Part shown: positions 47,501 to 50,500 of the stretch, piece by piece
Layout: each line of letters begins with the position of its first letter
Position numbering within the stretch: position 1 is the first letter of the stretch
Assembly: GCA_963825055.1 (NCBI GenBank)
Contig: CAWGSK010000008.1
Span: forward strand, 53,818 to 117,817
Length of the DNA: 64,000 bases
Direction of reading: 5' to 3'
Source of the DNA: an uncultured Gemmatimonadales bacterium
GTDB lineage: Bacteria; Gemmatimonadota; Gemmatimonadetes; Gemmatimonadales; GWC2-71-9
Program-made: the position numbers

Positions 47501-50500
47501 AACTCGCGCCTTTCCGGAAGATCGACCTGGTCATCGCGACGGCAGCGTAGGAACAGGAGCTGGAGGCCGCGCCAAGCCCGCAGGCGATCCCGATCGAGCG
47601 GGGGGAATCGTCCGGCAGGAGGCGGCCCATCTCCCCCTTTCGGACGACGGCCTGCACCACTGCGGAGAGCGTGAAGCCCAGGATCAGGCCCCAGAGAATC
47701 TCCCAGAACATGGTGAATGCCATCCCGAGCGCCTGCGCTGCGGCGTGAGGCAGATCCACGAGCATCAGGGACAGGCCGAGTGAGGCGGTCATGCGTCCGT
47801 CCTGTGGCGATGTTGGGAAGGTGCATCCCGGCGCGTGGGCCGAGCCGTGCGCGCTGTCACGGGTGGCCGCCCGCCGGGCGGAGTCGCAGGTAGACGGCGG
47901 CGCCCACCGGCGTCCGTGACCCGTACGCGCCGTGCAGCGCTTCGGGCAGCAACCCGACCGAGCCGCGTATGCCCGCGCCGAGTTCGAGCCCCCGCGCCCG
48001 TCCGAGGGTGGCGAGGTAGCCGGCCGTAATCGCGCCGATATCATGGGTGGCATCAGGACCGGGCAGCACGAGTTCGCCGGTGCCCTTCTGGATCCACTCG
48101 AGCCGGCTGAACACCTGGTGTCCCGGGCTGATCCCGACCGTTGCTTCCGCCGTCACGCTGTGCTCGAAGCCGTCCTCCCCTTCATGCTGGTTGCCCCCGT
48201 AGATGAGCGCAGCGGACACCGGTCTTGCGCCCTGGGGTGACACATAGAGAATCGCCGCGCCGAGCCGGTCCACGGACTCATCCGGTGCCAGTGACTCGGG
48301 GCTCTTCAGGTGGGCCCATGACACGCTCAGGCTCCAGCGCCGCGCCGGGTTGACCGCAAGCCGGGTGGACCAGGAATCCAGCGAGCGTCCGGCGTAGTCG
48401 AAATTGTAGCGATCCTCGTCCGGCTCCCGGCCATTGAAGACCGAGCCTTCGAGCTTCACGGATTTCGTGAACACCCCTGCCGTCAGCACCCCGAAGCTGA
48501 TGTGGGTGGCGTCCTGCCAGTGATGCGCCAGCGGGGCGAGCGGGTCCGCGGCGGCGGACGGCCTGTGGGGAAAGGCGACGGGGCCTGCTGAAGGCTCACC
48601 GACCGGGGCCACAAACAGGGAAATCCCGACTCCCGGCGAGAGGGCTCGCTCGTACAGCGCCGAGAGCTCCATGAACAGGTCGTGTGGGTGCTGGCGGTCG
48701 TGCAGCGGCGCGCCGTTCACCGTCTCGCCCGTCTGGAGCAGGAGGGGATAGCCGGCCCTGCCCAGGGTGAGCGGCTCGAGACTGAGCATGGTTCGCAGGC
48801 GGAGGACACCGCCGGCAGCCGGCCGGGAAGCCATCAGCATGCCCCAGTTGACGATGCCGAACTCGGTGTCACCGCGCCGACTCCCCTGGGCGTCCAGCAT
48901 CGGAAAGACGGCGCCGTGCAGCATGAAACTCCAGGCGCCCGCGCTTGCATGGAGCGCGTGCATCGGGGTCGCATCGGGCAGCCAGGATGTGCCCGACCCC
49001 AGCCGGGCGGTGGGGATGCCGAGCGGGCTGGCGTCGGGAGCCATGGCCATGTGCTCCGGCATCCCCTGGGCGTGGAGGGGGGCGGCGAGGAGCAGGCCGA
49101 TCATGGCAGACCGCAGTGCCGGCCGGGTGCCGTATCCCGTCCTGTGTCCGCTCAGGCCGGAAACCAGGCGATCGAAGGAATCTGGAGGAATCCCCGTGGA
49201 GGTGGCGTGGGAAGCGGCCCGGCGGAGCAGGGGGAGGGTGCGGGCGGACATGGTGTACAAGGATAGTTCGTTGGCCGCGGGTGGCGAACCTTTTAGGTTC
49301 CGGGGAGAACACTTCTCTGGACCCGAGCAGGAGGTATCCATGTCAGACATTGCCAAGGTCGTCGAGATCATCGCCGAGTCTCCCAAGAGCTGGGAGGATG
49401 CGGCGGCCGTCGCCCTCGCGGAGGCTTCACGGACCGTGGACAACATCAAGGAAGTCTGGGTGAGCGGGATGAAGGCGCTGGTGGAGAAGAACAAGATTAC
49501 CGGCTACCGGCTCACCGCGAAGGTGACCTTTGTAGTGAAGCGGGGGAAGAAGTAGCGATCAGTGACTAGTGACTAGTGACTAGTGGCTAGTGACTGGTGG
49601 TTCTATGCCGCGCTCCGGTGACCCAACGGGTACCAGCCCTGGCCCGCGAACTCACCACTCCGCACCAGTCACCAGTCACTAGTCACCAGTCACCAGTCAC
49701 TAGTCACTGTTCATCCGCCAGAACCCTATCCCTCCCGCCTGATACTGTACCTGGACCGAGGCCACGCGCCGGCGGCGGGCGAGGTCGAATACGTCAACGG
49801 TGCTCCGGGTGGCGCCGACCGCCTCATTCGAGACGAATGCGTAGCGTGAGTCCGGGCTGATGACCACGCCGTGGGTCACGGGCTGGGTCGTGGGCAGCCG
49901 GACCTCCCTGCCTGACCCGAGGTCAAGGATGGAGATCGCCTGTGCGCCCTTGAGCGTCGTCACCAGCCAGCGCCCGTCGGTGCTCACGTCCGCGTTGTAG
50001 GGGGCCTTGCCCGTCGGGAACCGGCGGGTGATGGCGAGCGTGCCGCGATCGATCTCGAGGATTTCGGCGTGTCCGTTGCAGGGCACATAGACATGCTGGT
50101 CGTCCGGGGCGACGGCGACCCACGTCGGCTTGCACCGCGGTCCGTCCATCGTCCCCGGCGTCATTTCTCCTGACAGGGCTCCCTCGTGTCCGGGCGTGAG
50201 CCCGAGGCGGCGGGTGACGCCCAGGCTGTCGGTGGCAATCTCCACCAGTTCGTCATCCATCATGCACACGGAGTACTGGAAGCGGCCGTCATGGGTCAGG
50301 CGGCTGCCATGCGGCATGGTGCACGTGGTGACCTGCCGGGTCTCAGTCATGAACGGCGTGAACACCGCCGACACGGAGCTGGGCACCATGTAGCCATGGA
50401 GATTGAAGTTCGCCACGAAGAGGCCCGACCCGTCCGGGGTCAGGCCGATGGTGGCCGGGAAGAGGCCGACCGTGACGGAGTCGACCAGGGTGTCCGGGCC

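Follow-up and report, generated by a model that had tools for sequence, protein, structure and literature searches.

Cyanobacterial STRR heptamers are families of tandem heptamers in noncoding DNA. Intergenic repeats rich in heptamers have been reported from scattered bacteria since the 1990s, with no consensus on where they come from or what they do, and the one detailed study has linked them to G-quadruplexes. The nearest described system is the GGGNATC repeat of Xanthomonas and Nostoc (Rehm et al. 2015, PMC4692102). According to the parts of that paper drawn on here, these tandem heptamers are 89 to 93% intergenic, form 70 to 75 convergent pairs per genome near stop codons, lie close to the 5' neighboring open reading frame irrespective of its direction, have a modal copy number of 4, and vary in length between relatives, and they are read as G-quadruplexes. 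The same parts report that 83% of the repeat positions are common to two Xanthomonas species, the loci being more stable than controls, and that Xanthomonas transcripts begin or end within these repeats at a higher rate than within control ones.

The TAACTGA direct repeats (MacGregor 2015, PMC4679880) occur in marine Beggiatoaceae, cyanobacteria, and Bacteroidetes, patchily across phyla. In the portion of that article used here, they consist of a single unit placed mostly just upstream of start codons, with indels in 7-nt steps between strains and one indirect repeat against 169 direct sets. The article also summarizes a survey of long simple repeats (5 to 11 nt) in prokaryotes (Mrazek 2007, via PMC4679880), with heptamers as the commonest class, a sporadic distribution among taxa, and slippage as the proposed origin; polarity, pairing, and placement at stop codons are not described in the portion of the summary used here.

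The locus studied here lies in a 64,000-nt stretch (the window) of the genome of an uncultured Gemmatimonadales bacterium. It is of a kind already known from GGGNATC pairs and heptamer-rich simple repeats, of which this genome is a larger and more varied case. Its features, in the gap between a dodecin gene and a converging propeller gene, are as follows.

49340-49555, + strand: dodecin gene (Pfam Dodecin, 79.1 bits)
49553..49555, + strand: TAG stop codon of the dodecin gene
49556-49699: intergenic gap, from the TAG of the dodecin gene (+) to the TAG of the propeller gene (-)
49561..49599, + strand: left arm, AGTGACT x5.6, C-poor (G-form); TRF 90% matches, score 64
49600..49662: spacer of 63 nt, unique sequence with one small internal stem only
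49663..49707, - strand: right arm, CACCAGT/CACTAGT x6.4 in + strand letters, that is, G-form on the - strand; TRF score 76
49700..49702, - strand: TAG stop codon of the propeller gene, inside the last array unit
49700-50839, - strand: YNCE-like beta-propeller gene

An array is called G-form on the strand on which it is C-poor, which in this family is the strand running 5' to 3' from the neighboring gene into the gap. The left arm begins 5 nt past the dodecin stop codon; the right arm covers the stop codon and the final two codons of the propeller gene and has an exact higher-order period of 21 nt (100%, TRF score 90). The initial annotation had placed here an AGTGACT array facing its reverse complement, and both arms were recovered by TRF with strong folds on both strands: -88.9 kcal/mol (z -8.9) for RNA of the + strand and -103.8 kcal/mol (z -9.7) for RNA of the - strand, values matched by 0 of 200 shuffles. 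No T-run follows either arm in the sequence, leaving stems without a U-tract, and a consensus scan of 49556-49699 found no canonical terminator. At the Rfam gathering score, the sole match in the 64-kb window was a tRNA (29497-29570), the arrays being unmatched.

The genome-wide excess of 7- to 9-nt intergenic arrays that had been reported was reproduced in substance. In all 35 contigs (strain-variant duplicates included; the genome is 87% complete), perfect arrays of at least 3 copies number 214, 81, and 42 for units of 7, 8, and 9 nt (337 in total), against 12, 6, and 1 for units of 5, 6, and 10 nt, and a Markov-5 simulation of equal length gave 0 for every unit length from 7 up. With gene boundaries taken from our own crude gene caller, which leaves 11.1% of the genome intergenic, 316 of the 337 are intergenic. 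TRF (score of at least 30) returned 787 intergenic arrays of period 7 to 9; TRF arrays of these periods cover 7.4% of intergenic bases versus 0.6% of coding bases, coding DNA being largely array-free except at period 9. Arrays are present in 133 of 241 convergent gaps (55%), 261 of 1,111 tandem gaps (23%), and 74 of 365 divergent gaps (20%). The copy number per array has its mode at 4 and a maximum of about 22, higher-order periods are present within some arrays, and the base composition of G-form modules is A.23, C.15, G.46, T.16.

The likening of these arrays to cyanobacterial and Beggiatoa heptamers that accompanied the initial annotation is apt at the level of class, and the GGGNATC repeats are nearer still. 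Set beside what the consulted parts of the GGGNATC paper describe, the intergenic excess, the convergent pairs, the proximity to stop codons, the mode of four copies, and the length variation are all shared, and this genome itself holds GGGTATC (= ATCGGGT) and GGGGATC (= ATCGGGG) arrays, in 31 and 11 of 759 modules. Unlike the single unit type described there, however, the 759 modules comprise 185 unit types of 7, 8, or 9 nt, most without G-tracts; the focal AGTGACT has none and is not of GGGNATC form. As far as the published class is described in those parts, what is new here, alongside the known heptamer pairs, is the many unit types, a polarity kept with unlike arms, and presence or absence between strains.

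The statement that half of the arrays form inverted pairs proved too high, about a quarter being partnered: under a strict test, a reverse-complement partner was found for 165 of 787 TRF arrays and, among the 316 perfect arrays, for 82 (against 33 and 20 in controls). Once duplicates are removed, 271 of 461 array-bearing gaps are one-sided. Both skews are represented in 204 gaps, whose inner arms share the same unit in 78, have units two mismatches apart in 25, and are unrelated in 101. Further elements in the window, as delimited by TRF, are these.

629..766: composite of GGGTATC x6, TCGTTGAG x4, and GGCAATC x4 (all G-form), then GACCGCCCT x3 (C-form)
4613..4776: GTGACTG x11.6 facing CTAGTCA x4.3, 53 nt apart
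6632..6735: GTGGCAA x3.6 facing CCACTTG x4.3
9615..9707: AGGGAGT x3.6 facing CCTATTC/CCTACTC x4.4
11101..11137, + strand: GCGGTCAG x4.8 (G-form), immediately to the left of a partial copy of a MITE-like insert
13051..13179: AGTGACT x5.6 facing CACTACT x4.6
14746..14866: AGGAGGC x4.9, then CGACCTCC x8, unlike arms of 7 and 8 nt
30863..30900, + strand: lone array, TAGCGAG x5.4
63216..63307, + strand: GGACGGACA x9.9 (9-nt unit)

The arms of the element at 629..766 are unlike and form no hairpin, unit variants cluster along the array at 4613..4776, and the inner ends of 13051..13179 carry the conserved tail of the family (AGTG-CTTCA ... TGAAG-CACT).

The universal rule of the family is its polarity. 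A C-poor array lies 5' of a C-rich one in 194 of 204 two-form gaps, with the opposite order in 1, and this order holds in ++, --, +-, and -+ gene arrangements, in 82 of 83 strict pairs, and in 80 of 82 partnered perfect arrays. It is obeyed even by arms of unlike unit, which sets these elements apart from the GGGNATC repeats as the consulted parts of PMC4692102 present them. The 174 ordinary intergenic hairpins show no order bias (72 versus 82). Two further Gemmatimonadaceae genomes keep the same polarity (5:0), as does a family relative bearing another unit. Arm lengths of two-sided elements are uncorrelated (rho 0.04, n = 69), and the idea that one arm serves as the template for its partner was rejected accordingly. 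Identity drops just as sharply at one array edge as at the other, from 0.90/0.93 to about 0.3, so that the direction of growth cannot be read from the edges. At 9 of 10 loci, the MITE-like insert sits exactly between the arms.

Placement is equally regular. Arrays lie a median of 5 to 7 nt from the stop codon, and lone G-form arrays (median, 4.5 to 6 nt) show the same geometry as paired ones. In tandem gaps, 206 of 259 elements are nearer the stop and 53 nearer the start, unlike the start-codon placement that the portion of PMC4679880 used here gives for TAACTGA; an array-free stretch of 63 to 81 nt precedes start codons, with a median of 70 nt to the next start. Array-bearing gaps exceed array-free ones (197 versus 93, 112 versus 83.5, and 252 versus 174 nt) by about the length of the element. 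Same- or near-unit pairs are somewhat commoner in convergent gaps (40 of 62 versus 61 of 128).

TAACTGA, as described in the same portion, and AGTGACT (read TGA-C-TAG) are alike as intergenic heptamers with two stop triplets around a C; the TAACTGA unit itself is absent among the 32 commonest unit types here. A cassette of stops in all frames was rejected as a general property: a stop triplet occurs on the G-form strand in 329 of 759 units versus 278 expected from letter-shuffled units, an excess that is modest and not general. Shine-Dalgarno mimicry was also rejected, since the energy of duplexes with the organism's own 16S 3' end was -6.44 for units versus -5.96 for shuffled ones, with 23 of 42 units better; such pairing is no more than composition gives.

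Arrays turn over between strains. Strain-variant contigs allow 43 array regions to be compared, of which 12 are identical. One two-armed element of 168 nt, with unlike arms and directly after a TAG, is absent from the strain variant, and at another difference CGGTGAA x13 stands against CGGTGAG x5, every unit having changed. In another population, 25 nt take the place of a 9-mer array. The Xanthomonas loci, by contrast, are positionally stable in the parts of PMC4692102 consulted. The units, grouped by automatic clustering, are also related to one another: the top 13 types account for 383 modules, and 41 of 42 common units fall into one single-step network with 56 edges, where letter-shuffled units yield 13 edges and a largest component of 5.8. 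Inner tails are held in common in 26 of 47 cases and outer flanks in 13 of 32, and array orders recur, while no motif is common to all units.

By its many units, most of them unable to form quadruplexes, and its pairs, half of them unable to form hairpins, this genome separates variables. Across units, the range of periods, the inward-pointing polarity, and the position at stop codons stay constant, and it is therefore these three features that any explanation must cover. The reading we favor, although tentatively, is that the family may be self-propagating, largely dispensable heptamer-type repeat DNA rather than purpose-built punctuation, within which same-unit pairs at converging gene ends probably serve as local two-way transcript-end hairpins. 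The focal locus is one member of a family of polar modules found throughout the genome, each a head-to-tail run of a 7-, 8-, or 9-nt unit that is C-poor from the gene into the gap. In most cases two modules face each other over a short, unique, unstructured spacer; with the same unit in both, as at the focal locus, they make a long imperfect palindrome and a transcript hairpin of about 40 bp, and with different units, in about half of cases, nothing folds. From the single mutational network and the recurrence of units at dozens of loci we infer that modules spread by copying; unequal exchange or slippage would then make them grow, shrink, and become homogenized. Strains gain and lose them, and they would persist only in spare DNA, flush with stops and about 70 nt off starts. 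Polarity might arise from manufacture, if on each side of the gap a 3' end is extended, with slippage, in the direction of its center, a cause in which we place little confidence.

Several observations count against this reading. The 87%-complete genome yielded no candidate for a copying agent: a reverse transcriptase search gave no RVT_1 match, and the sole clear Y1 transposase gene (Y1_Tnp, C3:21413-21859) is flanked not by arrays but by a different, small palindrome family of its own, with 11 + 12 core copies in the genome (about 23). This differs from REP/BIME elements, whose associated RAYT gene is flanked by its own repeat. REPs are, moreover, single imperfect palindromes and not tandem arrays, although REP/BIME elements resemble those described here in being dispersed, extragenic, situated after genes, and often in inverted pairs, and they are thought to affect mRNA ends. 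The enrichment in convergent gaps (55% versus 23% and 20%) and the somewhat higher share of same- or near-unit pairs there also count against this reading. The positional stability in Xanthomonas, as the consulted parts of PMC4692102 report it, speaks for retention by selection, and the presence of AGTGACT arrays in many phyla, at 29 of 71 loci after the end of an open reading frame, hints at a constraint or partner specific to the sequence, which a "junk" reading leaves unexplained.

It is unlikely that the pairs are purpose-built bidirectional terminators or insulators, existing for the sake of long, register-tolerant hairpins able to halt or shield transcripts arriving from either side. At the focal locus, no structure other than the hairpin separates the two converging genes and their gap contains no canonical terminator, arrays abut stop codons and are commonest in convergent gaps, and same-unit elements fold at a mean z of about -7. 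Convergent gaps free of arrays have strong structure (mean z -2.33, 48% below -2, n = 67), which is missing from the spacers that separate arrays (z -0.49, n = 92), and the more frequent starts and stops of Xanthomonas transcripts in repeats, within the parts of PMC4692102 used, point the same way. As in intrinsic terminators, a stable stem stands right after the gene and could be used two ways between converging genes; unlike them, the elements have no U-tract at the focal stems, stems of 35 to 45 bp made of repeats, and, in half of cases, no ability to pair. The 101 of 204 two-sided elements with unrelated arms do not fold, unlike-arm elements folding as weakly as shuffles do (mean z 0.08 to 0.68), and one-sided gaps, arrays in 20% of divergent gaps, uncorrelated arm lengths, and elements present in one strain and absent in another also argue against this explanation. 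RNA-level selection through sense-strand wobble was rejected, the sense strand being the more stable in 35 tandem gaps, the antisense in 57, and the two about equal in 5; the spacer as an original terminator was likewise ruled out, since spacers fold like shuffles. The idea of dedicated punctuation, whether terminators or landing pads, consequently fails for the family as a whole and is plausible for same-unit pairs at converging ends, where the contrast between structured array-free gaps and unstructured spacers supports it.

A proven protein reading of a 7-bp register exists in the parS of pSM19035, where, according to the part of PMC9499535 used here, 7 to 10 contiguous 7-bp units, direct or inverted, are bound by the RHH ParB protein Omega, at least 4 contiguous heptads are needed for full activity, and six sites lie over promoters of one plasmid. 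That the present arrays are platforms for protein binding in a 7- to 9-nt register, on duplex DNA (Omega-like RHH) or on single-stranded RNA or DNA, strikes us as rather improbable. The choice of units is highly selective, the top 13 making up half of the modules; one heptamer is retained in different phyla; arrays most often have 4 copies, which recalls the minimum for Omega; and the C-form of AGTGATT (21 modules) fits the Omega heptad consensus as given in that part of PMC9499535. Yet dozens of unit types would call for dozens of binders or a very tolerant one, the units share no common motif, and neither the stop-flush placement nor the fixed polarity is predicted. Unlike Omega parS, moreover, there are hundreds of sites after stop codons, and a search of the 87%-complete genome for an Omega homologue (Omega_Repress, PF07764) gave no match at E up to 0.1.

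We also consider, as a doubtful possibility, a strand-asymmetric extension of ends at breaks, in which repeated rounds of copying from a 7- to 9-nt template lengthen each 3' end. In a head-to-head telomere fusion, two short-unit arrays run with their G-rich strands 5' to 3' toward the junction from both sides. Extension at a break in dispensable DNA would similarly leave two inward C-poor arrays, like two healed chromosome ends joined. A two-armed, unlike-arm element present in one strain and absent in another would fit this, as would the unstructured filler in the middle, the MITE-like insert exactly between the arms at 9 of 10 loci, the Ku encoded in the genome, and the same rule in Xanthomonas, as far as the consulted parts of PMC4692102 describe it. 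Unlike the case of telomere fusion, there are many units here, and no telomerase-like enzyme or template was found in this genome. If true, this explanation would mean an unrecognized repeat-adding repair pathway in bacteria of several phyla.

Plain microsatellites, arising from random seeds by polymerase slippage that favors 7-nt units and tolerated outside genes, as in the summary of Mrazek (2007) in the portion of PMC4679880 used here, would account for the sharp period window of 7 to 9, the copy number differences between strains, the higher-order periods inside arrays, and the general absence of arrays from coding DNA except at period 9. Random seeds would not, however, yield a polarity of 194:1, a single network of units, recurring units with common tails and flanks, or a whole two-armed element at once, which leaves this origin hardly probable. 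G-quadruplex elements, as proposed for the GGGNATC repeats, are very improbable and as a general explanation contradicted, since, for all the GGGTATC (31 modules) and GGGGATC (11 modules) arrays and a modal copy number of 4 that would match four G-tracts (PMC4692102, in the parts used), the eight commonest copy classes hold 224 arrays with a GGG unit versus 514 without, both peaking at 4, the focal AGTGACT lacks a G-tract, and polarity and placement are identical for all units, so that the idea would survive only for the GGG-containing subset.

AGTGACT arrays are present in many phyla; the five unrelated genomes inspected (Flavobacteriales, Dialister, a gammaproteobacterium, Lentimicrobium, and Chamaesiphon) have 30 to 208 matches apiece, and the question can therefore be tested in culturable organisms. 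Elsewhere, the array follows the end of an open reading frame at 29 of 71 loci, and among 80 loci in other phyla a partner lies downstream in 10 and upstream in 5. Our literature search found no paper naming the AGTGACT heptamer as a repeat. Relatives of the propeller protein in JGI metagenomes have 65%, 64%, 48%, 44%, and 44% identity. The two nearest (65% and 64%) have another neighbor gene and no arrays in the downstream stretch inspected, TRF found no arrays of the focal kind in the whole loci of the two at 44%, and the protein query had no match in three Gemmatimonadaceae genomes with AGTGACT arrays. What TRF did return in the 44% loci was no more than a pair of weak 9-nt rows, lying some 800 nt upstream of the gene.

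The sequencing runs listed are five, all DNA soil metagenomes, from two studies, and the metagenome contigs are short and fragmentary. Arrays break short-read assemblies, and contigs heap up and stop there: depth is heaped on array bins, and many loose ends begin inside arrays. Two contig joints at the focal locus, 49592 to 49670 and 49592 to 49691, had sides of <30 and were left out. A single contig spans an array (63229 to 63319); in this soil-metagenome contig, which comes from another study, 63230-63318 is replaced by 25 other letters.

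The gap at 49556-49699 is the entire interval separating two converging genes, and it holds an AGTGACT array facing its reverse complement. Its parts, in window positions, are as follows.

49340-49555, + strand: dodecin gene (Pfam Dodecin, 79 bits)
49561-49599: left array, AGTGACT x5.6, beginning 5 bases past the dodecin TAG
between the left and right arrays: spacer of 63 nt
49663-49707: right array, CACCAGT/CACTAGT x6.4, with an exact 21-nt higher-order period
49700-50839, - strand: YNCE-like beta-propeller gene

The stop codon and last two codons of the propeller gene fall inside the right array. 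Predicted RNA from the + strand has a folding energy of -88.9 kcal/mol (z -8.9), that from the - strand one of -103.8 kcal/mol (z -9.7); none of 200 shuffles was as stable in either case. No Rfam family matched the locus, and a stem-plus-T-tract terminator scan of 49556-49699 returned nothing.

The locus belongs to a genome-wide population; the window corresponds to C8:53818-117817. The assembly (GCA_963825055.1) comprises 3.53 Mb in 35 contigs, is 87% complete and has 66-69% G+C; all gene-relative figures rest on a purpose-written codon-bias caller (3178 genes, 88.9% coding) and take in strain-variant duplicate contigs unless stated otherwise. Perfect arrays of at least three copies number 214, 81, and 42 for units of 7, 8, and 9 nt but only 12, 6, and 1 for units of 5, 6, and 10 nt, and a Markov-5 simulation gave none for any unit of 7 nt or more. 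Nearly all perfect 7- to 9-nt arrays are intergenic (316/337). TRF found 787 intergenic arrays of period 7-9, and arrays of these periods cover 7.4% of intergenic bases versus 0.6% of coding bases. Arrays occur in 133/241 convergent, 261/1111 tandem, and 74/365 divergent gaps. These counts therefore reproduce in substance those of the initial annotation for perfect arrays, intergenic excess, and gap classes.

The accompanying claim that half of the arrays form inverted pairs proved too high. With a partner defined as an array of the reverse-complement unit, of equal period, with at most 1 mismatch and within 300 nt, 165 of the 787 TRF arrays have one (a separate direct partner exists for 10), as do 82 of the 316 perfect arrays (controls: 33 for the reversed unit and 20 for the complemented unit). 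We call the C-poor orientation of a unit its G-form and the reverse complement its C-form. Of the 204 gaps holding both forms, 78 have inner arms that match exactly or differ at one position and 25 have inner arms with two mismatches, while in 101 the arms are unrelated or have different periods. Arm lengths are uncorrelated, same-unit pairs included (rho 0.04, n = 69). Elements (the arrays filling one gap) whose arms share a unit have a mean fold z of about -7, whereas folds of unlike-arm elements are shuffle-like (mean z 0.08 to 0.68). A hairpin device is ruled out for the family as a whole because pairing is impossible for any lone array and for half of the two-sided elements. The earlier reading of the arrays as hairpin terminators holds at best for a subset. 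Convergent gaps, where the hairpin subset stands, are strongly structured themselves when array-free (mean z -2.33, 48% below -2, n = 67), and the share of same- or near-unit pairs is somewhat higher at convergent gaps (40/62 versus 61/128); for these reasons, we think that the same-unit pairs are a putative local two-way transcript-end structure.

What unites the arrays is polarity. The G-rich arm lies left and the C-rich arm right in 82 of 83 strict pairs, an order valid on both strands because the structure is inverted. Among the 204 gaps with both forms, G-form precedes C-form in 194, the reverse holds in 1, and 9 are mixed; partnered perfect arrays give 80:2. The order is kept in ++, --, +-, and -+ gene arrangements and also for unlike-unit arms. 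Arm composition (A.23, C.15, G.46, T.16) is C-poor, not merely G-rich. Ordinary intergenic hairpins of the same genome (174 perfect stems of at least 9 bp, outside arrays) show no such bias (72 versus 82), so the rule belongs to the arrays. It recurs with another unit in a family relative (TAG, then GGGGAAA x4.9, 76 nt, and CCCTTTT x3.4) and in two other Gemmatimonadaceae genomes (5:0). Since polarity is independent of gene direction, whatever causes it should act symmetrically around the midpoint of the gap; most simply, we infer, this would be synthesis proceeding from both flanks toward the middle. No reverse transcriptase was found in the 87%-complete genome.

Placement follows the ends of genes. 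Elements adjoin stop codons (median gap 5-7 nt, tenth percentile negative); in tandem gaps, 206 are closer to the stop and 53 to the next start, and about 63-81 nt ahead of start codons stay clear. Both array edges are sharp, the element takes up the whole gap in 47% of convergent cases, and array-bearing gaps exceed array-free ones in length by approximately the element span. Lone arrays have the same geometry as paired ones: sense-strand G-form arrays lie a median of 4.5-6 nt from their stop codon and C-form arrays about 54 nt from it.

The units form a connected set. With modules (single tandem arrays) oriented to the G-form and duplicates removed, 759 modules comprise 185 unit types, the top 13 accounting for 383. 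Among the 42 types with at least 4 modules, 41 join in one single-step-change network with 56 edges; letter-shuffled units (60 shuffles) gave 13 edges, and their largest component was 5.8 (maximum 13). AGTAGTG modules end in phase, followed by a common short tail, in 26/47 cases, and 13/32 AACGGTG modules have a common outer flank. Composites of GGGKATC arrays, GTTGAGTC arrays, and a C-form GGGCGGACA array recur in that order at unrelated loci. Otherwise each spacer is unique in sequence (the top 8-mer occurs in 8/168), and spacers lack structure (mean z -0.49, n = 92).

Strain-variant contigs in the assembly (90-99.9% identity) reveal turnover. Length differs in 24 of the 43 comparable array regions and is unchanged in 19; 12 regions are identical in sequence. 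A 168-nt element directly 3' of a TAG at C13:124996 (GGCGGACA x12, 16 nt of filler, then CCCGATA/CCCGATC arrays) is wholly missing from the variant, in which only 5 nt separate the two stop codons; the site shows no evident target duplication. At another locus, CGGTGAA x13 stands against CGGTGAG x5, every unit being altered, and the 9-mer array at 63230-63318 is replaced by 25 letters in another study's soil-metagenome contig. Seven family relatives (279 kb sampled) hold 2 perfect arrays where about 27 would be expected at the density of the studied genome. The arrays are multi-copy, and short-read assemblies are broken at them. Summed depth of the soil-metagenome contigs rises 5- to 10-fold over the array-holding bins 49336-50002 and 62676-63342, and many contigs terminate there.

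Comparable repeats are known. In Rehm et al. 2015 (PMC4692102), the repeats are GGGAATC in Xanthomonas and GGGGA(C/T)T in Nostoc; they are 89-93% intergenic, variable in length with a mode of 4 units, close to the 5' neighboring ORF in either direction, and with 70-75 pairs per genome "with convergent orientation"; 83% of positions are common to two species. G-quadruplexes were proposed there and the role was left open. Our GGGTATC and GGGGATC arrays belong to that class by sequence, while the remaining arrays share its geometry but differ in unit. In the eight commonest copy classes, 224 arrays have a GGG unit and 514 do not, and both groups peak at 4 copies. MacGregor 2015 (PMC4679880) describes TAACTGA direct repeats, most of them immediately ahead of start codons, and a single indirect repeat; as cited there, Mrazek 2007 found that, in genomes with many 5-11-nt repeats, heptamers are the most frequent of the long simple repeats, a preference possibly arising from 7 nt fitting the polymerase. 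Literature searches found no paper on Gemmatimonadota repeats and no rotation of AGTGACT as a repeat name; the class is not described for Gemmatimonadota in the literature searched.

AGTGACT itself is widespread. An exact scan for three copies (one genome per species) found at least 124 stretches; the matches listed include Dialister, Acidaminococcus, several Bacteroidota, Gemmatimonadaceae, Steroidobacter, other Gammaproteobacteria, cyanobacteria, Chloroflexota, Patescibacteria, Verrucomicrobiota, Planctomycetota, and others. At no more than 1 mismatch, five of these genomes have 30-208 matches each (backward-read control 0) and the studied genome has 83; thirty nearer relatives have none. 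Arrays of unrelated phyla carry the same variants, GGTGACT and AGTGGCT. Of 80 loci from other genomes, 65 lack a reverse-complement partner, 10 have one downstream, and 5 have one upstream, so neither pairing nor strict polarity is a universal property of AGTGACT. At the 71 loci with complete flanks, 29 G-form arrays have an open frame of at least 90 codons ending at their 5' edge, compared with 9, 11, and 15 for the other three arrangements. In a complete Dialister genome, the minus-strand matches among those listed fall only in the first 320 kb, a hint that strand preference may follow replication or the direction of genes.

The arrays are real and striking, a more diverse variety of a known but unexplained repeat class, and they are dispensable from strain to strain. 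The observations fit dispersed repeat DNA that would be copied between loci, reshaped by slippage, and tolerated only in sequence that has no other use. This reading rests on the narrow period window, the limited set of related units, the conserved module ends and recurring composites, the birth of a whole element at once, the sharp array edges, and positions limited by stop codons and promoter space. Against this reading stand the positional stability reported for Xanthomonas, the reuse of one heptamer across phyla, and the enrichment in convergent gaps, all three of which hint at selection.

Other sequences accompany the arrays. A MITE-like sequence of about 130 nt with inverted ends is located exactly between arms, with 9 of 10 copies lying between or next to arrays in the correct G-then-C polarity and flanking units that vary from copy to copy; it either targets the middle of array elements or was captured there. 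Its copies include the following.

11144-11205 of the window: partial copy
C7:30802-30929: full copy
C7:44243-44372: full copy
C17:64770-64891: full copy
C8:27948-28068: full copy

Two further tandem repeats (120 nt x2.4 at 98%, 10201-10482; 83 nt x2.5, 11217-11422), each with a C-run/G-run palindrome in its unit, were noted between a C-form array at 10160-10199 and a G-form array at 11101-11137, which are in the opposite of the usual order but about 900 nt apart. A 354-nt tract at 13237-13590 (periods 15/45/60/90 nt, GGGCTCGGCCCGCTG-like, ~70-76% matches) lies directly downstream of the array pair 13051-13179. Outside the window, a Y1 transposase gene (C3:21413-21859; 149 aa, Y1_Tnp, 74 bits) has REP-like palindromes on either side, with 11+12 copies of their core genome-wide. 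It appears to be a small REP/RAYT system of the classical kind, independent of the arrays. The genome also encodes Ku (C13:122133-122672, 175 bits; strain variant C28:18949-19488), so end joining is probably available, and an AGTGAGT array pair (C13:122946-123048) lies just downstream of that gene. The 16S rRNA gene (C12:384797-386332) shares the stretch C12:384519-389883 with arrays of four unit types, which follow the usual order.
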